Source: an uncultured bacterium
GTDB taxonomy: Bacteria > Vulcanimicrobiota > CADAWZ01
Direction: 5' to 3'
Assembly: GCA_902790465.1 (NCBI GenBank)
Contig: CADASF010000014.1
Location: 538-64,537, forward strand
Length of the DNA stretch: 64,000 nucleotides
The first letter of the stretch is position 1. The number at the start of each line of letters is the position of its first letter. Of this stretch, positions 7,413 to 63,994 are shown one piece after another. A program made the position numbers and the translations under genes. The notes under the pieces are model-generated. The model was not told the origin of the DNA. It saw nothing but the letters and a program-made list of their open reading frames with translations, and did no database searches.

Positions 7413-8162
7413 TTACTTTTTTTCTGCCAAGCGATTAATCTGTGTTGCTATATATCCTGCTCCATATCCATTGTCAATATTTACAACAGAAACTCCATTT
7501 GCACAAGAATTTAACATTGTCAAAAGAGCAGAAAGCCCTCCAAAACTCGCTCCATATCCAATAGAAGTCGGAACTGCTATAACTGGATTTGATACCATTC
7601 CACCTATAACACTTGCCAAAGCACCTTCCATTCCTGCTATTGCTATCACACAATTTGCTTTTTGTATCAATTCTATTTTAGAAAGAAGCCTATGCAATCC
7701 ACTTACACCTACATCATAAAATCTTTCAACATTACTACCAAAATATTCTGCTGTCTGTGATGCTTCTTCTGCAACAGGAATATCTGCAGTGCCTGCACAA
7801 CATACGGCTATTTTTCCAATTTTTTCTTTTGGATTTCGTTCAACTTTTAAAATTTTTGATATAGGATCATATTCGACATCTGAAATAACATTTTTTATCA
7901 ATTCATATTGCTTTTGACTTGCCCTTGTTCCAAAAACACTTCCGTTTTTATCGAGAAGTTTTGTATAAATAGAAACAAGATGTTCATCTGCCTTTCCACT
8001 GCAAAAAACAACTTCTTGAAATCCACTCCTTATCTCACGATGCATATCAAGTTTTGCATATCCAAGCTCTTCATAAGGAGCTTGACTAAAATAAGCCTCT
8101 GCTTCATCTATTGGCATTTTTCCATTTTTTACATTTTCAAGAATTTCTCTCGCCTTCGTCAT
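7413..8162 (-). CDS. larB: LarB, PurE-like carboxylase making pyridinium-3,5-biscarboxylic acid mononucleotide
   Basis: PurE-like core ...IAVCCAGTADIPVAEEA...GMEGALASVIGG.... The likely start is the ATG at 8162 (MTKAREIL), preceded by AGGAGG; the track's TTG start at 8207 is probably an over-extension. Confidence 0.8.
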   Translation of the reverse strand: MTKAREILENVKNGKMPIDEAEAYFSQAPYEELGYAKLDMHREIRSGFQEVVFCSGKADEHLVSIYTKLLDKNGSVFGTRASQKQYELIKNVISDVEYDPISKILKVERNPKEKIGKIAVCCAGTADIPVAEEASQTAEYFGSNVERFYDVGVSGLHRLLSKIELIQKANCVIAIAGMEGALASVIGGMVSNPVIAVPTSIGYGASFGGLSALLTMLNSCANGVSVVNIDNGYGAGYIATQINRLAEKK

Positions 8163-8639
8163 TCCATCTATCCTCCTCTTTCGTCTTTTTTCGTCTGCGT
8201 CCCCCAAGATGAATTTGATATTATTTTTATTTATTTTATTTTTTAATCCTCTTTAAAATTGTCTTAATTTTTGTTATTTGCTATAATTATTATAATCAGA
8301 ATATTGAAATATTTTTATGATATTTTAGTAAATTATTAATTAGCAACTTTTATGTGGTGTCTTTCTATATATCCTATTTAAACTCTTTCTTTATATTTTT
8401 TTTGTACCAAATAACCAAACAAAGTTTTGGGGTATAATGTAACAAATTCGCTCCAAGGAGAAAAAATACTGGAACGGCTTCAGTTTTCTCATAGTATAGC
8501 TAAATAAAAAGAAGCTCTTATCTTTGCGAGAAAACTGTCAGAGTTCAGAGTGAGGATATTATACCTCAAAAATTGGCGTAAGCAGAATAATTATAACACT
8601 CTTCAAAATTAATGAAGATTTGCAAAGGAGATTATTTTA

Positions 8640-9098
8640 ATGGTAAAAATAGATATAACTTTTGATGAAAAGACGATGAATATTTTTCAAAATTTCATTG
8701 GAAAAAAATTTGAAAAGTACAAATCTGATCCTTTTGTATATTCTTATTCTGTATATGGAATAGTAGGATTATATATAGACAAATCTGTATATAAATTGAC
8801 AAATCTAACAGAAGTTATGAATTATTATGGTGCTAAAGAAGATGTTGCTATTTTCAAATTTGAAAATAGTATAGATGAAGAGATAAAGACATTTATGATC
8901 AACGGCAAAATGATAGAAACTTCTTTAGATAATACAATTTCCAAAATACAAATTGTAAATGAAAATCAAAAAACATTTTATAAAGGCGAGCAAGATTATG
9001 ATGTTTGGGTAACAAGAGGAATAATATTTTTCTTTGCCGATGGTTTGGAATTGTCATTTGAAAAACCTGTTTGGTTTTCTGAAGATATATATAGATAA
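8640..9098 (+). CDS. Hypothetical protein (152 aa)
   Basis: ORF with an AGGAGA RBS at 8627-8632 and no recognisable motifs. It is preceded by a ~190-nt untranslated leader downstream of a TATAAT at ~8436. Confidence 0.4.
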   Translation: MVKIDITFDEKTMNIFQNFIGKKFEKYKSDPFVYSYSVYGIVGLYIDKSVYKLTNLTEVMNYYGAKEDVAIFKFENSIDEEIKTFMINGKMIETSLDNTISKIQIVNENQKTFYKGEQDYDVWVTRGIIFFFADGLELSFEKPVWFSEDIYR

Positions 9099-9200
9099 AG
9101 GATATAATTTGATATCAAGGTTTACTCCTGAAGATGAGTTTCCTAAACATTGGGAAAATGGTTATATTGCAGAATGTACAAGAAAAATAATAGAGATTAA

Positions 9201-9734
9201 GTGAAAGGAGAAGAAAAAATGGAAGTAGAAGACGGTTATCCCAATTATCTTGTTGAAAAGGGAACTTTTTTTACAAGACCAGAAGGTATTCCACTTTTGA
9301 TGGATTTGCATAATACTGAAATTCCTAAAGATATTATACCTTTTGACAAAGCTAAGACATGTAAAAATAAGAGGCAGTATGTTCATTTTTATATGTATGA
9401 TCAAAAATTTGCGAAATTTTTAAAGAGATATAAAAAATTTTACACCTTCAAATCTTTTTTTAAAATCTTTCAATATATCTTCAAGATCGAAATAAAGAGC
9501 GTTAAAAAGCCCATTATGTCCATCAAATACTGAATCATATTGATAAAAGCATATTGCCGTCTTATCTGTCTTTTTATAAAGTCCTGTTTCTGAATAAAGA
9601 GCCAAAAAATCAGGATAAACTGTTGTATTACAATTAATTTTTGGCAAATCCAGTTCACCTACAGAATCAGTTTTATTGGTATATTTCAAATAATTCAAAT
9701 TTAACAATCTTTGAATATTTTCATGTTTTTTCAT
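9201..9734. pseudogene. Two convergent, overlapping, truncated DUF4417-like N-terminal fragments (9201..9533 plus strand and 9420..9734 minus strand)
   Basis: Both ORFs reach the family motif (QYVHFYMYDQKFAKFLKRYKKF and AICFYQYDSVFDG...DFKKRFEGVKFF), then terminate exactly where the full-length paralog at 1-680 continues with ITPDFS.... The two reading frames meet head-to-head at the same 9426-9464 DNA segment. Confidence 0.4.
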
Positions 9735-9746
9735 AAAAACTCCCTA

Positions 9747-10355
9747 TTAGTTCTTAGAATGTTCAAATATCCAATTAATAGCTTCTTTTCCGTCAATTAT
9801 TTTTGTTTCATTATCATTAGAAATATCAAATGATAATTTTGTTGCCGAATCAATGTTTGTATGATTTATAAAAATAGAACCATTGATTTTAACTTTACTC
9901 ATATATGCTAAATTGAAATCAACATTTTCAAAAATTGCATTTTGCAAATTTGCTTCAATAAAATCTGCTCCTTCAAACGAACAATTTATAAATTTAGAAT
10001 TTGCAAAGTTTGTTTGATACATTTCCGCACGACTAAATTTACAATTGTTGAAGACTGCATTTTCCATGTTACAATAATTAAGAACAGATTTATAAAAATT
10101 ACATTTAGTGAAAATACATTCATTAAATATACTTGAATATAATTCAGCAAGATAAAAATCTGTACTTTCAAAATCTTTTTTTGAAAAATTGCAACAAGTC
10201 AAATAAGATTGCTGAATTGGAAAATTTTTATCAACTATATTACGCAAATCAATTTCGTCAAGAACAAGTTGTTTAGCTCTTAATTTGCTATTTTTTATCA
10301 TTCCCAACCATTTTTTATGTTGTTCGATTTTTTCTTGTAATTGTTCAGTAGTCAT
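9747..10355 (-). CDS. Pentapeptide-repeat protein
   Basis: Consecutive A(D/N)LxX-type pentads: CNFSKKDFES...ANSKFINCSFEGADFIEANLQNAIFENVDFNLAYM. An N-terminal coiled segment precedes them. Confidence 0.7.
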   Translation of the reverse strand: MTTEQLQEKIEQHKKWLGMIKNSKLRAKQLVLDEIDLRNIVDKNFPIQQSYLTCCNFSKKDFESTDFYLAELYSSIFNECIFTKCNFYKSVLNYCNMENAVFNNCKFSRAEMYQTNFANSKFINCSFEGADFIEANLQNAIFENVDFNLAYMSKVKINGSIFINHTNIDSATKLSFDISNDNETKIIDGKEAINWIFEHSKN

Positions 10356-10440
10356 ATCTAATCATAATATTAGAATTTTATTAATATCATTCATATTTTT
10401 TTAATAAATCATAATCAAGAACTTCTTTAATAAAAATTGC

Positions 10441-10530
10441 TATTTATAAAGCTTCGCAATGATAAAGTGGCAGTGTACAGGCATATATTGGATAGTTTAT
10501 AGCAATTTTTTATTTACTTGTTTTAAAAAA
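10441..10530 (+). repeat. Composite small repeat, copy A (R1 module)
   Basis: cgcaatgataaagtggcagtgtacaggcatatattggatagtttatagcaattttttatttactt matches 11741-11830 and the reverse complement of 4293-4345. Confidence 0.6.
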
Positions 10531-10555
10531 AAATCAATTAACACAAGGCGTTAAT

Positions 10556-11047
10556 CTATTTATGATTATTATGTAATTTGAGTTCTTCTTTTACATGTTC
10601 AATATCTTTTTCAGTCAAATTTGTTATATAGACACTGACTAATTTTTCTTTTGAATCAAATGATAAAATCAACTGCCCAGTCTGAAAATATTTTATAGGT
10701 TCTGATTCTGATAAATCTATTCTACCCCCATCGTTATATACAATAGTATTGAAATAAGAACAGTTTACTTTGCTTGCCCCTTTTATTATCACCTTTCCCT
10801 TTTTATCAACAACTGGTAATTTCATTTTTTCATATTTAAATTCATAATTATTGCAACATATCATGAGAATTTTTTTTATATGGAATCTTATTGGATGTAG
10901 TGAAAATTCAAGATCATTTTTATCTTCATTCTTAAAATATAGATAGTGATTACAAAGTTCATCTGAAAACACAACTCTTATTGAAAAAAAATCTTCTCTC
11001 TCAAAATGAGATATTACTTCTTCTGATGTATCAAAAATAAATTTCAT
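10556..11047 (-). CDS. Hypothetical protein (163 aa)
   Basis: ORF only; no motifs recognised. Confidence 0.4.
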   Translation of the reverse strand: MKFIFDTSEEVISHFEREDFFSIRVVFSDELCNHYLYFKNEDKNDLEFSLHPIRFHIKKILMICCNNYEFKYEKMKLPVVDKKGKVIIKGASKVNCSYFNTIVYNDGGRIDLSESEPIKYFQTGQLILSFDSKEKLVSVYITNLTEKDIEHVKEELKLHNNHK

Positions 11048-21439: not shown

Positions 21440-22237
21440 TTATTCCTCCGGTACAGGCATAGTCTTTAATATTTCTTCAGCGTTATTTGGGTTTGTATTT
21501 CTTCTGTCTTCTCTTATGAGACCATCTCTAAATACAATAACTCTGTCAGCAAATTCTGCTATTTCATCAGAGTGAGTAACCAAAACAACTGTTATGCCAT
21601 TTTTTCTGTTCATCTGCTGAAAAATATTCATAATTTCAACAGATGTTCTTGAATCAAGATTTCCAGTAGGCTCATCCGCCAAAATAAGAGAAGGATTTTT
21701 TATCAATGCCCTTGCTATAGCTACTCTCTGTTGTTGACCTCCTGAGAGTTGATTTGGCTGATGATAATATCTTCCATTAAGTCCCACTGAATCGAGAGCC
21801 TTTCTTGCCATTTCCTCACGTTCTTGCTTATTGTAACTTCTTGCTCTTGAATACAAAAGAGGAAGCTCTACATTTTCTATTGCAGGAGTTTTTGCAAGAA
21901 GATTAAATCCTTGGAACACAAAACCTATGAGATCATTTCTTATATCTGCCAATTCATCTCTCGACATATTGGAAACATTTCTGCCGTCAAGTATGTATTC
22001 TCCTTTTGTCAATTTATCAAGACAGCCTAAAATGTTCATGAGTGTTGATTTTCCACTTCCTGAAGTACCCATTATGGCAACGAGTTCTCCGTCATAAACA
22101 CTCAATGTTATACCACGGAGAGCATGAACTTTTACTTCGCCTGAATCATAGATTTTTTCAAGATTCTTGACTTCAATTACTGTTTTCTTATTTTTTTCTT
22201 CTTTTTCTTTTGCCATATCATTATACTCTCTTGCCAC
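21440..22237 (-). CDS. ABC transporter ATP-binding protein (MacB/LolD-type)
   Basis: Walker A GTSGSGKST, signature LSGGQQQRVAIARAL, Walker B ILADEPTGNLD. Confidence 0.9.
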   Translation of the reverse strand: MAREYNDMAKEKEEKNKKTVIEVKNLEKIYDSGEVKVHALRGITLSVYDGELVAIMGTSGSGKSTLMNILGCLDKLTKGEYILDGRNVSNMSRDELADIRNDLIGFVFQGFNLLAKTPAIENVELPLLYSRARSYNKQEREEMARKALDSVGLNGRYYHQPNQLSGGQQQRVAIARALIKNPSLILADEPTGNLDSRTSVEIMNIFQQMNRKNGITVVLVTHSDEIAEFADRVIVFRDGLIREDRRNTNPNNAEEILKTMPVPEE

Positions 22238-57535: not shown

Positions 57536-58768
57536 ATGGAGGTTAAAATTTTGAATACATCCAAAAATGATAAATACATTCCAGCAGGAATAGAAAAATT
57601 GACACAGACAATAAACAAAACACAAAATATGTCAAAGTCAGCAAATACAGATTTAAATACATCAGAAAAATATGCTGGAATAAGAGTTGTTGGAGTTGGT
57701 GGTGCAGGCTGTAATGCTGTAAATAGAATGATTCACACTGGTTTAAAAGGTGTTGATTTTATAAGCATAAATACTGACCCACAAGCACTATTTTTATGTG
57801 ATGAAACAGCGAGACGAATACCTATAGGACAAAATACTACCAAAGGTGTTGGTGCAGGTGGAAATCCTGAAATCGGTCAAAAAGCAATCGAAGAAAACAG
57901 AGCTGAAGTAGTATCTGCACTTCAAGGAGCTGATATGATATTCATAACAGCAGGAATGGGTGGAGGTACAGGAACAGGAGCTTCTCCGATAGTTGCTGAA
58001 ATAGCAAAAGAAATAGGAGCTTTATCAGTTGCTGTTGTAACAAAGCCATTCTCATTTGAAGGAAAAATGAGAGGTATGATAGCCGATCAAGGAATAGCCA
58101 AACTAAAAGAAAAAGTAGATGCTCTAATAGTAATTCCAAATGACAATCTCTTAAAAGTTGTTGACAAAAAGACATCTCTCATTGATGCTTTTAAAGTAGC
58201 AGATGATGTATTGAGATATGGAGTTCAAGGAATAACAGATATAATGACAATTCCTGGACTCATTAATGTTGATTTTGCAGATATACAGACAATAATGTTA
58301 AATAGTGGATCAGCTTTAATGGGCATTGGAATGGCAAATGGAGATCAAAGAGCTGCTGCTGCTGCAGAAGAAGCAATCAAAAGCACACTTCAAGATACTT
58401 CTATCGATGGTGCAAAAGGTGTATTATTCTGTATAACAGGCTCAAGTTCAATGACACTTGCAGAAGTTGATGAGGCTTCAAGGATAATATCCCAAGCCGT
58501 AGATCCTGATGCAAAAATAATATTCGGAACTGTCATAGATGAAGCCTATGCTGATAATATAATGGTTACTGTTATAGCAACAGGTTTTTCTTCAGCAGAA
58601 GATTCACTTTCAATCATGGCAGATGATGAGCAACAGGATTATTCTCAACAGTACAATACATATCAACAATCAGATTATGGAAAATCTGAAGATTATGATC
58701 AGATATCTTCAATTCCAAGTTTTTCATCGGCTCAAAGTATAAGGGAAAGATTTTTAAAGAGAAAATAA
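57536..58768 (+). CDS. ftsZ: Cell division protein FtsZ
   Basis: Tubulin signature [10 protein letters not shown]; [17 protein letters not shown]; conserved C-terminal peptide. Confidence 0.95.
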
Positions 58769-58815: not shown

Positions 58816-59145
58816 ATGGCAGATTTTATGCAACAAGCAATGGACGCTCTAAAAGCAATGAAGGACAAAAACATAAGTTTAGATGATCTAATACCAAAAG
58901 ATACTTATGGACTTGTAAAAAATGTAATTGCTTCACTTGGTCAACAGGCATGGATAAACTTGGGAATGCAACCAAATCCAATGACGCAAAAAATTGAAAA
59001 AGATTTAAAACAGGCAAAATTGGCTATCGATTGTACAACAAGTCTATGTGAAATAATGAAACCATATTCTTCTCCAAGGGAGAAAATAGAATTGGATACT
59101 TTAGTACAAAATTTGCAATTAAACTTTGTACAACAAAATCAATAA
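58816..59145 (+). CDS. Small conserved hypothetical protein (109 aa) downstream of ftsZ
   Basis: ORF with a plausible RBS; possibly DUF1844-like (unverified). Confidence 0.4.
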   Translation: MADFMQQAMDALKAMKDKNISLDDLIPKDTYGLVKNVIASLGQQAWINLGMQPNPMTQKIEKDLKQAKLAIDCTTSLCEIMKPYSSPREKIELDTLVQNLQLNFVQQNQ

Positions 59146-59241: not shown

Positions 59242-59270
59242 TTGCATTTTAATTGTTTTTTGTGTATAAT
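59242..59270 (+). promoter_or_regulatory. Sigma-70-like promoter (TTGCAT-17 nt-TATAAT) ahead of the pspA operon
   Basis: Seen directly. A TTGGCAAAGTCT motif downstream resembles the half-site of the 1166-1186 palindrome. Confidence 0.4.
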
Positions 59271-59354
59271 AGAAAACAGTAAAATTTATGTAAAATTATT
59301 ATTTGGCAAAGTCTATTAACAAAGTTCTAATCTTCTACGAAAGGATATAATACT

Positions 59355-60125
59355 GTGTTTAAAAGAATTAGTAAAATTTTTAAGGGTTTTATGAGTCTAT
59401 TTATCAAAAATATTGAGACTAAAAATCCAGAAGCTCTTCTCGAAGCTCAAAAAGAAGAATTAAGAGAAAAAGTATCTCAATTCAATACAAATTTAGCAAA
59501 ACAGGCTGGTTTTGTCGCAAGATTAGAGAGATTTGTAGCTGAAAGAGAAAAGAAAGAAAAAGAACTTTTGGCAAAAGCTCAAGCAAATCTAAAAGCAGGT
59601 AATACAGAAATTGCAGGAAAAGCTGCAATGGAACTAAAGACAACTCGTACAGAATTAGAAGGCTACAAAGCCCAATTAGTAACAGCTAAAAAATCTTACG
59701 AACAACTTGTAAAGACAAAAGATGTAACAATAAAAGAAGCAAAAGCAAAACTTGAATCTCTACAACAGAAACTTTCACAAGTCAAGATGAAAGAAGCAGA
59801 AGCAGAACTTCAAGAAATGTCTCAATCTATGGTTGGAGAACTTGGAGCTGGTGGAGATACAATGAATCGCCTTGACGAACAGCTCAATGAGAGATTGGAA
59901 CTTGCAACAGGAAGAGCACAAGTTGCCAAAGATTCTGCTGATTTCTCAGATGTCATGATGAAAGAATCAGAACAAAAAGCTCTTGAAAGCCAAGCACTTG
60001 CAGAACTTGCAGCTTCAATGGGAATGGATTATTCACCTTATGGACCAGCTCCTGTTGCTGAAAAATCAATGGGTCCACAAAGTGGAGTTTCATTAGAAAA
60101 AGAAACACAACTTGACATAATTTAG
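59355..60125 (+). CDS. pspA: PspA/IM30 (Vipp1/LiaH) family protein, ESCRT-III superfamily
   Basis: N-terminal amphipathic helix FKRISKIFKGFMSLF, long coiled coils, and the PspA-like ...LESLQQKLSQVKMKEAEAE... region; ~250 aa. Confidence 0.6.
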   Translation: MFKRISKIFKGFMSLFIKNIETKNPEALLEAQKEELREKVSQFNTNLAKQAGFVARLERFVAEREKKEKELLAKAQANLKAGNTEIAGKAAMELKTTRTELEGYKAQLVTAKKSYEQLVKTKDVTIKEAKAKLESLQQKLSQVKMKEAEAELQEMSQSMVGELGAGGDTMNRLDEQLNERLELATGRAQVAKDSADFSDVMMKESEQKALESQALAELAASMGMDYSPYGPAPVAEKSMGPQSGVSLEKETQLDII

Positions 60126-60176
60126 TAGAAAAGTACCACAATATCCCAAAATATAAAAAATGGGAGAATAGTTTTT

Positions 60177-61034
60177 ATGAAAAATAAAACAACCTTTTTG
60201 GATTTGGTAAAAGAATGTTTTGGTTGGTGGCCAAATATCTTATTTCTTATTGTTGCAGTAATATTTGGACCTTCTATATGTGGTTCAGCAGAAATTGCAT
60301 ACATAGCAGGTGGAATAATAGAAGCTCTTTGGCTGTTTTTTGGTGGCGGAACTCCTATTATTCAAAATAAAATAAAACAAAAAGAGCAGCAAAAAATCTT
60401 AGCAGAATGGAATAAGAAGAAAAATAGAATCATTGCAAAACTATCTTCAGCTAGCAGAAACAGATTTTGCAAATTTGAAAATACTGGTAGAAATATTTCA
60501 TCTATAATAAATCAATCAAGAAAAGATGGAATAAATGCAGATCCTACAAAATTAAAAACAGTAAATCAACTTCTTTGGCTATCATTAAAACTTCTCTATT
60601 CTCGTGAAATAATGGTCAATAATGTAAAGGGCAATACAAAAGATATGCTCGTTACAAAAATTGAAAATATGAAAAAGAATAGAGAGAATGAGAAAGATCC
60701 TAAATTAATAGAAACACTTGACTCAACAATCAAAACTATGGAACAACGACTTGAAACATTTGACAAAGTTTCAAATGATATGAAATCAATAGATTTAAAC
60801 TTGTTGAGAATAGAGGAACAATTAGAACTTCTCAAAAATTTAACTGCCATAGAAATTCAAAATTCAAAAGGCAATTTGACAAAACAGATAGACAACGCAC
60901 AACAATCAATAGATGACACACAGGATTGGATGGAAACAGCAAAAGATTTGTTTGCTCCTCTTGATGATGATCTGACAGAAACACCTCCAGACGATATTTT
61001 CGTTCAAGGTGTTTCATCTGGTGGGATAATTTAA
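60177..61034 (+). CDS. Membrane-anchored coiled-coil protein (2 predicted N-terminal TMs), co-operonic with pspA
   Basis: WWPNILFLIVAVIFGPSICGSAEIAYIAGGIIEALWLFFGG, then a ~200 aa coiled coil and an acidic tail. Confidence 0.5.
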   Translation: MKNKTTFLDLVKECFGWWPNILFLIVAVIFGPSICGSAEIAYIAGGIIEALWLFFGGGTPIIQNKIKQKEQQKILAEWNKKKNRIIAKLSSASRNRFCKFENTGRNISSIINQSRKDGINADPTKLKTVNQLLWLSLKLLYSREIMVNNVKGNTKDMLVTKIENMKKNRENEKDPKLIETLDSTIKTMEQRLETFDKVSNDMKSIDLNLLRIEEQLELLKNLTAIEIQNSKGNLTKQIDNAQQSIDDTQDWMETAKDLFAPLDDDLTETPPDDIFVQGVSSGGII

Positions 61035-61131
61035 AACCAAATGGCGTTTAATTCCACCGCTTCTATACAGGCGGAGAAATTAGACGCCATTTTTTCATAA
61101 ATAAGCTAACAAATAGTGGAGGATTATATAA

Positions 61132-62907
61132 ATGACTGAAATTGCTTCTTGGGCAAAAAAAATGCAACAATATTTTATAGCAGGGACTTCTTCACAATTT
61201 ATTCTATATGGAAATATATTTGACTATGTCCCAGTAAGAGATAGAAATAGATTAGAATTTATATCTTTGAGAACATTTTTAAATGATGTGATGTTTGCTC
61301 CATTCGATGTAGTCATATTCTATGATAGAGGAAAAGGCATCAGGGTTAAAAAAGGACAAGAAGAATTTCGTCGTTTTTTATCAGGATACGATACTTTCAA
61401 CCACACAAACTATGCAACATTTATGGGTAATCTTCCAAGAGAGCCTAAAGTTGCAATAGATTTGATAGACAGATTTATACAATTAAATCTACAAAAAGTA
61501 AAATTTTCAGAAAATGACAGAAATGCAGATGGAACACTAAAATCTTACACAATCCCTGTAAAAATAGCAATAGTTATAGACTATGCTCAATATGTTGTTC
61601 CAAGAGGCGAACTCATGCAGATGGTAGGAAATACAAGTGAAGTCCTGATAAAAATACTCGACTGGGCTTCAGATCCTGCCATAACAAATGCACATGTTGC
61701 CACATGTCTAATAACAGAAAATCTACAAGAACTAAATACATTATTGATAGAAAGTCCATACAATACAAAAATAAAACTTCCAATGCCTGATGAAAATGAA
61801 TTGGCAGATTATTGCAGATTTTTATCTGAAAGAATGCCTGATTACCATGAATACTGCAAAATTGAACCTAGATTACTCGGTGCAGGAATGTTGGGTCTCA
61901 CAAAAGCAGGTGTCAATTCTATAATCTCATTTGCAATAAAAAACAAACAGGAATTAAATCCAAAAATTCTGTCACAAAACAAAAAAAGCTATATAGAAAA
62001 AGAATGTAACGATCTTCTTGAATTCATAGAATCTCCATATAACCTTGATATGGTAGCAGGTCATAGAGCAGCAAAACAATGGTTAAAAGAAGATGCAGAA
62101 TTGATAAGAAATGGAAAATTGAGATCGATTCCTATGGGTTATCTCTTGACTGGTGGAATAGGTACTGGAAAAACATTTTTAGCAAACTGTTGGGCTGGCG
62201 AACTCGGAATTCCGTTTGTAAAATTCAAAAATTTCAGAGACAAATGGCAAGGCTCAACAGAAGGAAATCTTGAAAAAATATTCACTGTTCTCGATGCCTT
62301 GGGTCAAGTAATTGTATTTATTGATGAAGCTGACCAATCTACAGGAAAAAGAGAAGGTGGCGGAGGCGATTCAGGAGTATCAGGAAGAGTCTATTCAATG
62401 TTAGCTCAAAAAATGAGTGATACAAAAAACAGAGGAAAAATAATTTGGATACTTGCGACATCTCGTCCAGATTTGCTTGAAGTTGATTTAAAAAGACAAG
62501 GAAGACTTGATGTTCATATTCCACTTTTTGCACCTCAGACAGATGAAGACAGAAATGAATTATTTAAAGTAGTTGCAAAAAAATCTGGTTCTGACTTAAA
62601 AGATGAAGACATACCAACACTTCCAACAGGTCTATCATCATTGGGAGGAAACGAAATGGAAGCACTTCTCGTAAGAGCTCATAGACAATTTGATCTCCAC
62701 AAGACTGATGAAACACTTGCAGAAATTCTCAAAAACCTCCTAAAAGATTTCAGACCTTCTGCATATACAGCAGCTCTCGAATATATGGATTTAATTGCAG
62801 TAAAAGAATGTACTGATTCCATGTTTTTGCCAGAAAAATATAAATCAATGACTCCTGAAGAATTAGACGAAAAAATAGAACATGTAAAGCACAGAATGAG
62901 TATATAA
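61132..62907 (+). CDS. Classical-clade AAA ATPase (Vps4/katanin/FtsH-type second region of homology) with an unknown ~330-aa N-terminal domain
   Basis: Walker A GGIGTGKTF, Walker B VIVFIDEADQ, SRH ILATSRPDLLEVDLKRQGRLDVHIPLFAP. Confidence 0.75.
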   Translation: MTEIASWAKKMQQYFIAGTSSQFILYGNIFDYVPVRDRNRLEFISLRTFLNDVMFAPFDVVIFYDRGKGIRVKKGQEEFRRFLSGYDTFNHTNYATFMGNLPREPKVAIDLIDRFIQLNLQKVKFSENDRNADGTLKSYTIPVKIAIVIDYAQYVVPRGELMQMVGNTSEVLIKILDWASDPAITNAHVATCLITENLQELNTLLIESPYNTKIKLPMPDENELADYCRFLSERMPDYHEYCKIEPRLLGAGMLGLTKAGVNSIISFAIKNKQELNPKILSQNKKSYIEKECNDLLEFIESPYNLDMVAGHRAAKQWLKEDAELIRNGKLRSIPMGYLLTGGIGTGKTFLANCWAGELGIPFVKFKNFRDKWQGSTEGNLEKIFTVLDALGQVIVFIDEADQSTGKREGGGGDSGVSGRVYSMLAQKMSDTKNRGKIIWILATSRPDLLEVDLKRQGRLDVHIPLFAPQTDEDRNELFKVVAKKSGSDLKDEDIPTLPTGLSSLGGNEMEALLVRAHRQFDLHKTDETLAEILKNLLKDFRPSAYTAALEYMDLIAVKECTDSMFLPEKYKSMTPEELDEKIEHVKHRMSI

Positions 62908-62926
62908 AATAGGCAGGTATACCACC

Positions 62927-63994
62927 ATGTTCAAAAATAACAAACCAGTAAAACATAAAAAAGGAGATTATAGAGATATAGCAATGGACTCTATGAACTC
63001 CTTAGATGAACTCGAAGGCTTAACTATGAACAACACCTATGTATCTCCTTATGAAAAGAGACACTTTGAGCAAGCTGTAGAGATATTGGATAGAGATCCG
63101 AGATTTACAAGAAATTCAGTAATAAAAAAACCTTCATCAACTGAAATTCCAAAACAAACAGAAGATGCTTTTGCAAGTATGATGAAGAAAACTGTCAATC
63201 TAAATGCAAATAACAATGAAACTCCTCCTTCAAAAGAAGATTCATTTAAAAGTTTGATGAAAAAGAAACTTAGTAATTATGAAAATGAAAAAGCAAACGA
63301 TACAAATCCAGCAGCTACAACTCTATTAAATAATACAGAAGTAGAACAAAAATCTATAAACTTAGAGAAACCTATAAATGATCCAGTAAATACAAATAAT
63401 ACAATTAACGAAAATGTAAATATCCTCGAAAAAAAGACAACTGCTGGGGCTGGACTGCTAACAACTGCTGGAGCTGGACTGCTAAATTCAGTTGAAAAAC
63501 CAAAACCAGCTCCCAAAGACGACACAACAGACGATATTGCAGATATTGCCTTTGAATATTTAGTAAAAAATGGAGAAGAATGGAAAAACTACGACGAAAT
63601 ATATAAACTTGCAAATATTCCAAAATTAAAAAATGGAATGTCAATAGAAACAATAATAGGGATGTCGTCTGAAATGTCAAATATGCCCATAGATGTCAAA
63701 ATGAGTTCAATCTTGGGTTATCTTGAATCAAAAAATATAGATCCTGCTACAATAATTGAAGATTGTAGAAAAAAAGAAACAGTAATAAAACTATACGAAG
63801 AATTTCTTGAAGAAACATTAGCTAAAAAGAAATTGAGAATAGAATCTGAAATAGACCTATTGAATAAAAAAATTGCAGAACGAGAAGATATAATAAGAGA
63901 AGATATAAACAGATTAAATGAATGGAAAAATGACAGAATTATATTAGAAGACATGATGAAAGAAGCATGTGAGTGTTTGGGGCATAAACAGTAA
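62927..63994 (+). CDS. Hypothetical protein with a low-complexity N-terminal half, a tandem TTAGAGLL duplication and a C-terminal coiled coil
   Basis: ORF with RBS; the last gene of the pspA-AAA operon. Confidence 0.45.
   Translation: MFKNNKPVKHKKGDYRDIAMDSMNSLDELEGLTMNNTYVSPYEKRHFEQAVEILDRDPRFTRNSVIKKPSSTEIPKQTEDAFASMMKKTVNLNANNNETPPSKEDSFKSLMKKKLSNYENEKANDTNPAATTLLNNTEVEQKSINLEKPINDPVNTNNTINENVNILEKKTTAGAGLLTTAGAGLLNSVEKPKPAPKDDTTDDIADIAFEYLVKNGEEWKNYDEIYKLANIPKLKNGMSIETIIGMSSEMSNMPIDVKMSSILGYLESKNIDPATIIEDCRKKETVIKLYEEFLEETLAKKKLRIESEIDLLNKKIAEREDIIREDINRLNEWKNDRIILEDMMKEACECLGHKQ

Follow-up and report, generated by a model that had tools for sequence, protein, structure and literature searches.

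The four-gene cluster downstream of ftsZ

In the window, by which we mean the whole 64-kb stretch of DNA that was analysed, four co-directional open reading frames separated by gaps of 51, 97 and 19 nt lie between the ftsZ/DUF1844 genes and a DedA gene. Their features are the following.

59242..59270, + strand: candidate promoter (TTGCAT, 17-nt spacer, TATAAT) within the 209 nt that follow the DUF1844 gene; a weak call
59355..60125, + strand: pspA, PspA/IM30/Vipp1 family of the ESCRT-III superfamily; 256 aa, GTG start, Pfam PF04012
59355..59414, + strand: N-terminal helix alpha0 of PspA (MFKRISKIFKGFMSLFIKNI), cationic and amphipathic, as judged from hydrophobic moment, charge and family conservation
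60063..60077, + strand: C-terminal tail motif K-S-M-G-P of PspA (K237-P241), a candidate ATPase-recognition element
60177..61034, + strand: membrane-hairpin helical protein, 285 aa, counterpart of the 'SIG+TM+Snf7' component of Ravi et al. 2024
60225..60344, + strand: hydrophobic helical hairpin of this protein, residues 17-56 (AF2 helices 17-35 and 38-56)
60966..60989, + strand: acidic-proline tail of this protein, D264...E268-x-P270-P271, assigned by family conservation
61132..62907, + strand: AAA ATPase gene, 591 aa
61132..62031, + strand: D1 of the ATPase, residues 1-300, predicted degenerate and nucleotide-dead AAA module
62032..62907, + strand: D2 of the ATPase, residues 301-591, active classical-clade AAA module and C-terminal helical region
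62152..62175, + strand: D2 Walker A, GGIGTGKT, conserved in 35/35 family members
62242..62253, + strand: D2 pore loop KWQG, conserved as KW[QVM]G in 35/35
62311..62334, + strand: D2 Walker B, VIVFIDEAD, conserved in 35/35
62455..62514, + strand: D2 second region of homology with R455 and R458 (KRxGRLD), both arginines conserved in 35/35
62927..63994, + strand: accessory coiled-coil protein, 355 aa, of a family conserved 3' of the ATPase

A sequence-only reading had taken this region for an operon of four co-directional, closely packed genes behind a single sigma-70-like promoter. The genes are present and spaced as it described them, and domain searches detected no PspB, PspC, PspF, LiaI, LiaF or LiaRS domain in the genes neighbouring pspA. 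The promoter, however, could not be supported: its -35 hexamer at 59242 agrees with the consensus at only 3 of 6 positions (the TATAAT occupies 59265-59270), and the region, with 31% GC, holds no more sites resembling promoters than chance predicts, 21 having been seen and 22.1 being expected from shuffling.

The product of the first gene matched Pfam PF04012 (PspA_IM30) with 50.2 bits (cut-off 33.9) over residues 2-220, corresponding to profile positions 3-216 of 220. Moreover, the PspA family profile A3 matched the Vipp1 structures 8qhv, 8qfv, 7o3w and 9eom (E = 3e-5 to 2e-4), and the alignment was in register, residues 1-182 against 1-178, which bears out the assignment of gene 1 to PspA/IM30. 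A ribosome-binding site, AAAGGA, is located 8 nt 5' of the GTG start. Helix alpha0, formed by residues 1-20, has a hydrophobic moment of 0.62 and a net charge of +5, and its residues R4, L8, G11 and F12 are near-invariant across the family. Public gene calls begin pspA at an internal ATG (position 59391), by which 12 residues of alpha0 are lost. In the tail, G240 and P241 are invariant or near-invariant after a variable linker (n = 50 AAA-linked PspAs).

Gene 2 encodes a membrane helical protein, as had been proposed, and its product did not match any Pfam family. The AF2 model is all-helical (pLDDT 81), with six more helices following the hairpin. Helix 1 of the hairpin is clearly transmembrane-like (KD hydropathy >1.6), and helix 2 reaches about 1.5 by hand calculation; the polar residues N20 and E49, the latter in helix 2, are invariant in the family. 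Additionally, the tail is conserved as [ED]DL[LM]xEPP, and P270 in it is invariant. The label of a divergent Snf7/ESCRT-III protein given to this component by Ravi et al. 2024 was not confirmed here with respect to ESCRT-III homology.

The fourth gene was correctly described as coding for a repeat-containing coiled-coil protein. Its C-terminal part of about 165 aa (63494-63991) is a conserved, coiled-coil-like family domain, and the N-terminal part of about 190 aa, of low complexity, is an extension specific to the lineage and includes a tandem repeat of 24 nt x 2 (63437-63485, TTAGAGLL twice). No known family was identified for this protein by Pfam, NCBIfam or PDB profiles. Members of its family were found in 26 of 80 related loci, always directly 3' of the ATPase gene, and the window protein is 47% identical to that of the relative L001, the ATPase being 96% identical.

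A tandem AAA ATPase with a degenerate first module

The ATPase matched PF00004 with 93 bits at residues 338-464, the only Pfam domain detected in it, and the best PDB relatives of D2 were VAT, Cdc48 and p97 (1e-36). The second region of homology from which a classical-clade AAA had been proposed, ATSRPDLLEVDLKRQGRLDVHIP, is present, and the motifs of D2 and its aromatic pore loop are intact and conserved in all 35 family members, consistent with that proposal. The ATPase gene is the most conserved one in the region (96% versus 84% for ftsZ at the protein level), and its product retains about 50% identity across phyla.

The part preceding D2 had been regarded as a novel substrate-recognition domain. 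Instead, structure prediction and fossil motifs indicate that the N-terminal 300 or so residues are a degenerate AAA module; it has no P-loop, and profile-profile comparison was negative for D1 as an AAA domain. Since D1 appears to be a degenerate AAA without a P-loop, the enzyme would be a tandem AAA protein like Pex1/Pex6 or Cdc48.

Comparison of the N-terminal domain with MIT and of the AAA core with Vps4 had been suggested as a check, and a Vps4-like architecture was not borne out. No match to MIT (PF04212) was obtained in the ATPase at E <= 0.1, Vps4_C (PF09336) is absent from it, and its architecture is that of a tandem AAA, not of a single cassette. The CdvC model (NF041006) scored 37.8 bits (cut-off 650), below the models of CDC48 (78.9), FtsH (72.1) and PAN (62.8). 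Clearly, with neither MIT nor Vps4_C, a tandem arrangement with a dead D1 and this low CdvC score, the ATPase can be ruled out as a Vps4 orthologue.

Conservation of the cassette and its relation to known systems

The comparison covered 80 related loci, which represent 15 or more lineages of phylum rank; full flanks were available for 44 of the loci. A pspA gene was present on the ATPase strand in 62 of the 80 and in 40 of the 44 fully flanked ones, in Acidobacteriota, Planctomycetota, Riflebacteria, Xenobia, Armatimonadota, Gemmatimonadota, Melainabacteria, Omnitrophota and others. The association of pspA with the ATPase gene is far above chance. The sequence-only reading had staked its proposal on conserved pspA-AAA synteny, and as the linkage is conserved across phyla, always on the same strand, the proposal stands on this point. 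In the remaining 4 of the 44 loci no pspA lies near the ATPase gene; the hairpin-protein gene is missing as well in three of them. The hairpin-protein family was found in 68 of the 80 loci, immediately 5' of the ATPase gene.

The usual relatives carry a cassette of 6–7 genes that includes a module of the ABC importer type, made up of a peptidoglycan-anchored, OmpA-fused solute-binding protein (SBP), a permease and an ABC ATPase, and the gene orders among relatives are cyclic permutations of one arrangement. None of these three transporter genes is present in the 64-kb window; the lineage of the window appears, from the sequence comparison, to have lost them and kept PspA. The locus is thus almost certainly a reduced member of a widespread cassette of PspA and a tandem AAA protein. 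The sole ABC ATPase match in the 64-kb window, at 21440-22237 on the minus strand, is unrelated.

The idea of an ESCRT-III/Vps4 analogue at this locus is not new: both the dyad and the analogy were published by Ravi et al. 2024 (mSystems, PMC11237479), who described computationally PspA with an 'inactive-classical-AAA + classical-AAA' protein and a membrane-anchored helical protein, often next to an ABC transporter. Their examples are AEY64320.1/AEY64321.1 of Clostridium sp. BNL1100 and the OGG56892.1 operon of Candidatus Handelsmanbacteria, and in their account the long form with SBP (PBPB/NMT1) fused to OmpA, permease and ABC ATPase is optional. The window locus adds a member to this association. 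It shares with the published dyad the dead N-terminal and active classical AAA modules, the pairing with PspA in a same-strand neighbourhood, the membrane-anchored helical protein next to the ATPase and the presence of 'other coiled-coil proteins', but it lacks the SBP+OmpA, permease and ABC ATPase genes of the long form. The Handelsmanbacteria order (PspA, SBP+OmpA, permease, ABC, TM protein, AAA) is matched exactly by our long-form relatives.

As in the ESCRT-III/Vps4 (CdvB/CdvC) systems of archaea and eukaryotes, an ESCRT-III-superfamily gene is coupled here to the gene of a classical-clade AAA protein, which has an aromatic residue in its pore loop and a pair of arginines in the second region of homology, and PspA has a conserved C-terminal tail in a position comparable to that of MIM motifs. 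A gene for a solute-binding protein (ProX) is found in some ESCRT loci of archaea too (PMC10936438). In contrast to Vps4/CdvC, the ATPase has no MIT, Vps4_C or beta-domain and is a tandem and not a single AAA, and the polymer partner is of the PspA type and not of the Snf7 type. The locus may be viewed, by analogy, as a functional counterpart of ESCRT-III/Vps4 that uses a Cdc48/Pex1-like AAA, and the recruitment of an AAA protein to PspA was probably independent of ESCRT-III/Vps4. The type II AAA unfoldases with a degenerate D1, namely Pex1/Pex6 and in a wider sense Cdc48/p97/VAT and NSF, are another close parallel. Contrary to them, the ATPase lacks a double-psi-barrel or other N-terminal substrate domain, degeneration of its D1 has gone much further, to the loss of any P-loop, and it is much shorter (591 aa), with a family-specific C-terminal helical extension.

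Ways in which PspA may be coupled to the ATPase

We give an even chance to the overall explanation in which the cassette consists of a specialised PspA and a dedicated tandem AAA protein, and the ATPase remodels PspA. PspA would bind to the cytoplasmic face of the membrane via its cationic amphipathic alpha0 and then polymerise, and the 285-aa hairpin-anchored protein would tether or recruit the ATPase to the membrane. The ATPase is envisaged as a double-ring hexamer in which a nucleotide-dead D1 has a structural role and D2, with its KWxG pore loop, is active. It may grip C-terminal tails, K-x-[LIM]-G-P of PspA and EDLLxEPP of the hairpin protein, and extract subunits by threading, so that the PspA assembly would be turned over or remodelled at the expense of ATP, with the fast-evolving fourth coiled-coil protein as a possible accessory or adaptor. 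ATP-driven disassembly of PspA by the ATPase is the best-supported mechanism, and we place its probability slightly short of even. In its favour, the nearest relatives of the ATPase are unfoldases (VAT, Cdc48, p97, FtsH and PAN). Counting against it, most cassettes carry an ABC transporter, the role of which the model does not explain. In the Chlamydomonas chloroplast, Vipp1 is disassembled by HSP70B-CDJ2-CGE1, an ATP-dependent chaperone. The likeness lies in the ATP-dependent remodelling of PspA/Vipp1-family oligomers, which is a precedent for PspA/Vipp1 polymers needing active turnover, even though the chaperone is an Hsp70 system and not an AAA unfoldase, and is not operon-linked.

The tightest coupling in the cassette is that of the hairpin protein to the ATPase, not that of PspA, and so the hairpin protein could be the real client. 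According to this alternative, which we consider unlikely, the ATPase would extract or assemble the hairpin protein and/or the ABC-transporter complex, much as Msp1, Cdc48 or a protease-less FtsH does with membrane proteins, and the part of PspA would be confined to sealing or stabilising the membrane where the ATPase acts. The adjacency of the hairpin-protein and ATPase genes is the most invariant one, commonly with a 4-nt overlap, the cassette falls into a Perm-ABC-TM-AAA block and a PspA-SBP block, the hairpin protein has a conserved C-terminal tail of its own, and the fully flanked locus L056 keeps its gene and that of the ATPase without pspA. However, five loci are minimal PspA-AAA pairs with neither hairpin protein nor transporter, the GP motif of the PspA tail is conserved even in such pairs (e.g. 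L066 and L052), and in the lineage of the window the transporter was apparently lost and PspA kept. Conserved pairing would fit equally well a regulator and its enzyme, as if PspA inhibited the AAA ring until membrane stress recruited PspA and freed the ATPase for other targets. E. coli PspA, which inhibits the AAA+ protein PspF and is not its substrate, sets a precedent for such negative regulation by a functionally paired PspA. PspF, however, is a divergently transcribed, PspA-regulated sigma-54 activator of the NtrC type (bEBP) with an HTH DNA-binding domain, whereas the ATPase here belongs to the classical-clade unfoldases, has an aromatic pore loop and lacks an HTH, and PspB, PspC and PspF are absent from the locus. 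As the conserved disordered tail of PspA also resembles a tag for threading or initiation rather than a surface for inhibition, we regard a purely regulatory role as quite improbable.

Two further readings bear on the surroundings of the module and on its ATPase core. As the module lies directly downstream of ftsA-ftsZ-DUF1844, with 209 nt to pspA on the same strand in the window and in near-identical relatives, it was considered as an accessory of cell division. This is very improbable: ftsZ is near the ATPase gene in only 2 of the 80 loci, in one of which (L010) it is on the opposite strand and about 5 kb away, and in the 76%-identical relative L002 the transporter, and not ftsZ, is upstream. 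Anti-phage defence, IetAS-like or otherwise AAA-based, is hardly credible. The ATPase core did match the IetA models of PADLOC (56.7 bits) and the IteA model of NCBIfam (35 bits), but these matches cover only what AAA cores have in common, an IetS-like partner is missing, and PADLOC gave no match for the products of genes 1, 2 and 4. Moreover, defence islands differ from this locus, which is conserved at about 50% identity across phyla and keeps a stable place in the chromosome.

Returning to remodelling of PspA by the ATPase, we propose, only tentatively, a wider interpretation: the cassette might be an independently evolved bacterial counterpart of ESCRT-III/Vps4, with a double-ring AAA protein, the K-x-[LIM]-G-P tag as an analogue of MIM and the hairpin protein as an adaptor, coupled in most phyla to an envelope-spanning, peptidoglycan-anchored ABC transporter. 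If true, this would overturn the review-level statement that in bacteria ESCRT-III polymers are without a Vps4-like regulator.

The four-gene locus and its transcription

A sequence-only reading of this DNA had proposed a group of four genes on the + strand, and the four open reading frames occupy exactly the positions given there:

59355-60125, + strand, pspA (gene 1), 256 aa, GTG start preceded by AAAGGA
60177-61034, + strand, transmembrane (TM) protein gene (gene 2), 285 aa
61132-62907, + strand, AAA ATPase gene (gene 3), 591 aa
62927-63994, + strand, coiled-coil protein gene (gene 4), 355 aa

The genes are separated by gaps of 51, 97, and 19 nt in a region of about 31% GC, and are preceded on the same strand by murC, ftsQ, a DUF881 gene, a small membrane protein gene, ftsA, ftsZ, and a DUF1844 gene. 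No convincing + strand terminator was found between the four genes, which makes an operon across all of them plausible. The sigma-70-like promoter from which they had been proposed to be transcribed, TTGCAT-17-TATAAT (59242-59270), is present as a sequence, but has no evidential value, as its -35 element is a 3/6 match, and sites resembling promoters are as frequent in this AT-rich stretch as chance would predict (21 found vs. 22.1 expected from shuffled sequences). A weak terminator-like hairpin with a 5-bp stem lies on the + strand inside the 3' end of pspA (60074-60086). It could serve as an attenuator of read-through, yielding an excess of PspA; sites of its kind are not in excess (4 found vs. 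2.2 +/- 1.5 by chance). An Rfam search of the whole window gave zero matches.

Conservation of the gene neighbourhood

Whether pspA and the ATPase gene stay together in related genomes was the decisive check named in the sequence-only reading. We compared 80 genomic ATPase loci that represent at least 15 lineages of phylum rank, including Acidobacteriota, Planctomycetota, Riflebacteria, Xenobia/Eremiobacterota, Armatimonadota, Gemmatimonadota, Melainabacteria, Omnitrophota, Myxococcota, Proteobacteria, and others; the nearest genomes are RUG13696, a MAG from the rumen, and another MAG from horse faeces. Iterative searches with the window proteins detected PspA in 62 loci, the gene 2 family in 68, and the gene 4 family in 26, each time on the same strand as the ATPase. 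Where the flanks were complete (n = 44), pspA was found in 40 loci and gene 2 in 38, so that the linkage passes this check. Conserved synteny of this extent excludes the chance adjacency of pspA and the ATPase gene, and comparative genomics lends strong support to the proposed pairing of PspA with an AAA ATPase of its own. Evidence against a strict pairing comes from the 4/44 fully flanked loci without pspA nearby, among whose neighbours no alternative ESCRT-III-like partner was found. In three fully flanked loci (L016, L029, and L076; ATPase at ~7900-9800), both pspA and the TM gene are missing nearby, and the ATPase neighbours, a TPR protein, a peptide chain release factor, and unknown proteins, suggest no alternative partner.

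In most loci, pspA and gene 2 are separated by genes for a solute-binding protein (SBP) of the NMT1/PBP type that carries a fused OmpA peptidoglycan-binding domain, a permease (Perm; BPD_transp_1), and an ABC ATPase. All gene orders seen can be derived by cyclic permutation from a single cassette of PspA, SBP+OmpA, permease, ABC, TM protein, AAA, and, optionally, gene 4; examples are PspA-SBP-Perm-ABC-TM-AAA (23 loci), Perm-ABC-TM-AAA-gene4-PspA-SBP (8 loci), and TM-AAA-gene4-PspA-SBP-Perm-ABC (4 loci). Bare PspA-AAA pairs were seen in 5 loci. The form PspA-TM-AAA-gene4 without a transporter is limited to the window and its 96% identical relative, L001. As the next relative (L002, horse gut, 76% identity) still has the transporter, and no SBP+OmpA or permease homologue was found in the window, the window form is a derived, reduced cassette, and the transporter-containing form is the norm.

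Other linkages are lineage-specific, as ftsZ lies near the ATPase gene in 2/80 loci and a DedA gene in 1/80. Among the 80 loci, the DUF1844 gene that lies between ftsZ and pspA (58816-59145, PF08899, 49.7 bits) occurs with the cassette in the window lineage alone. In the window's own genome, a gene for a DedA/VTT-domain membrane protein (PF09335, 88.7 bits) begins 2 nt after gene 4, just past the window end, and prolongs the co-directional block; it is at 9865-10560 in the locus fetched from this genome (L081) and at 10810-11505 in L001, where it overlaps the gene 4 stop. DedA proteins have been linked to envelope stress.

Properties of the encoded proteins

The gene 1 product is a genuine member of the PspA/IM30 family, with a Pfam PF04012 score of 50.2 bits (cut-off 33.9). 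When 50 AAA-linked PspAs were combined into a profile, residues 1-180 matched solved Vipp1 structures in register (E = 3e-5). Residues 1-20 of the gene 1 product form helix alpha0, strongly amphipathic and with a charge of +5. Public gene calls start the window PspA at an internal ATG (59391; compare 5260 in L081), giving a protein of 244 aa that lacks 12 residues of this conserved helix. The GTG at 59355, with its AAAGGA ribosome-binding site, brings back the family-conserved N-terminus MFxRLxxLxRGF, and our analysis adds this codon as the corrected start of pspA.

The ATPase matches PF00004 at residues 338-464, and the second region of homology quoted in the sequence-only reading is there. 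In all of 35 diverse family members, the C-terminal module (D2, residues 301-591) keeps Walker A (G[RG]IGTGKT), Walker B (VF[VI]DEAD), pore loop 1 (KW[QVM]G), the ATSRPD motif, and the two arginines of the second region of homology (KRxGRLD), which identifies this half as an intact classical-clade AAA module. Its closest sequence relatives are VAT, Cdc48, and p97 (1e-36). The suggested likeness to Vps4 did not hold: among NCBIfam models, CdvC gave only 37.8 bits, below CDC48 (78.9), FtsH (72.1), and PAN (62.8), so that the enzyme is not specifically Vps4-like. It is no Vps4 homologue. The N-terminal module (D1, residues 1-300), previously regarded as a novel domain, has a P-loop in 0/35 members, but the same comparison revealed hhhhD-Y-AQ at the expected Walker B position, LITEN at the expected sensor-1 strand, and KIxIPLPxE, a mirror of the classical "xIxxPLPD". 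These sequence fossils support the reading of D1 as a degenerate AAA module rather than a new domain. A profile-profile comparison of D1 with D2 gave no significant similarity. The ATPase is thus a type II AAA protein with a dead D1, most similar in its logic to Pex1/Pex6. D1 is family-specific (791 cluster representatives at 50% identity), nearly all full-length members have 560-610 aa, and identity across phyla is about 50% over the full length. One full-length homologue (P0032, 52% identical) is labelled as coming from a Candidatus Nitrosotenuis (archaeal) MAG, which could reflect horizontal transfer or a binning contaminant.

The gene 2 product was modelled as a hydrophobic helical hairpin (residues 17-56) with six cytoplasmic helices after it (AF2 pLDDT 81, pTM 0.70). 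Two polar residues inside the hairpin, N20 (60234-60236) and E49 (60321-60323), are invariant across phyla, which suggests a functional intramembrane site, e.g., for permease contact or for lipid or proton sensing. Ravi et al. (2024; PMC11237479) labelled this component "SIG+TM+Snf7". We could not confirm the Snf7 label, as ESCRT-III homology was not confirmed by Pfam searches with 54 members, by a PDB profile search, by hhalign against the PspA profile (probability 0.8%), or by Foldseek (best E-value 0.23, CdvB only at E = 2-3). In gene 4, the conserved part is the C-terminal ~165 aa, whereas the N-terminal ~190 aa, with a twofold TTAGAGLL repeat, are lineage-specific. No relatives of known function were detected for it, and PspA profile and PDB searches gave coiled-coil noise only.

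Between the window and L001, identity is 96% for the ATPase, 89% for DUF1844, 87% for PspA, 84% for FtsZ, 77% for the TM protein, and 47% for gene 4, pointing to very uneven selective pressures inside one operon. The values for the RUG13696 MAG are the same, with the ATPase (61132-62907) at 96% better conserved than FtsZ (57536-58768; 84%), PspA (87%), or the TM protein (77%), and gene 4 at 47%.

Possible role of the cassette

AAA-linked PspAs end in a variable linker and an invariant K/R-x-[LIM]-G-P motif (K237-P241 in the window), kept even in minimal PspA-AAA loci, and the TM family ends in [ED]DL[LM]xEPP. We infer that both tails, whose position is analogous to that of MIM motifs, may serve to engage or dock the ATPase. 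In the best-supported reading, the ATPase would be a functional analogue of the ESCRT-III/Vps4 system built from a Cdc48/Pex1-like enzyme, in which a membrane-tethered double-ring unfoldase would turn over PspA polymers. Alternatively, it may have the TM protein or the transporter complex as its client: gene 2 is the tightest neighbour of the ATPase gene, commonly with a 4-nt overlap at the ATPase start, so that TM-AAA coupling is the tighter one, and one locus has the TM gene and the ATPase without pspA. It may also be that PspA regulates the ATPase in the way it regulates PspF. A role in division is poorly supported, with ftsZ nearby in just 2/80 loci, and so is a role in defence, a reading we rejected since the match to IetA is confined to the generic AAA core.

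The association of PspA with this ATPase is not new. It was published by Ravi et al. (PMC11237479), who drew the ESCRT-III/Vps4 analogy explicitly, and the gene order of their Handelsmanbacteria operon is identical to the commonest form among our loci. The cassette is therefore of a kind already known from one paragraph of computational description; we found no experimental study of the ATPase or the system, and it is experimentally untouched. Our analysis adds the quantified linkage, the cyclic-permutation structure, the transporter form as the norm and the window form as reduced, the tail motifs, the invariant intramembrane N and E, and the extreme conservation of the ATPase. Liu et al. (2021) raised the question of an ATP-driven partner that would remodel the ESCRT-III proteins of bacteria (PspA/Vipp1); Makarova et al. 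(2024) confined ESCRT systems to archaea and eukaryotes, Popp et al. (2022) did not mention the PspA-AAA system, and, according to a 2025 review, a Vps4-like ATPase "appears absent in bacteria". Among genomic candidates for a partner of this kind, the cassette is the best; it is very widespread and shows strong conservation. Its compact four-gene form in the window, free of the transporter, offers a convenient minimal set for reconstitution, and the conserved tail motifs are concrete targets for mutation. A parallel to the SBP of the cassette is seen in archaea, where some of the Vps4/ESCRT-III loci include a gene for the solute-binding protein ProX (PMC10936438).
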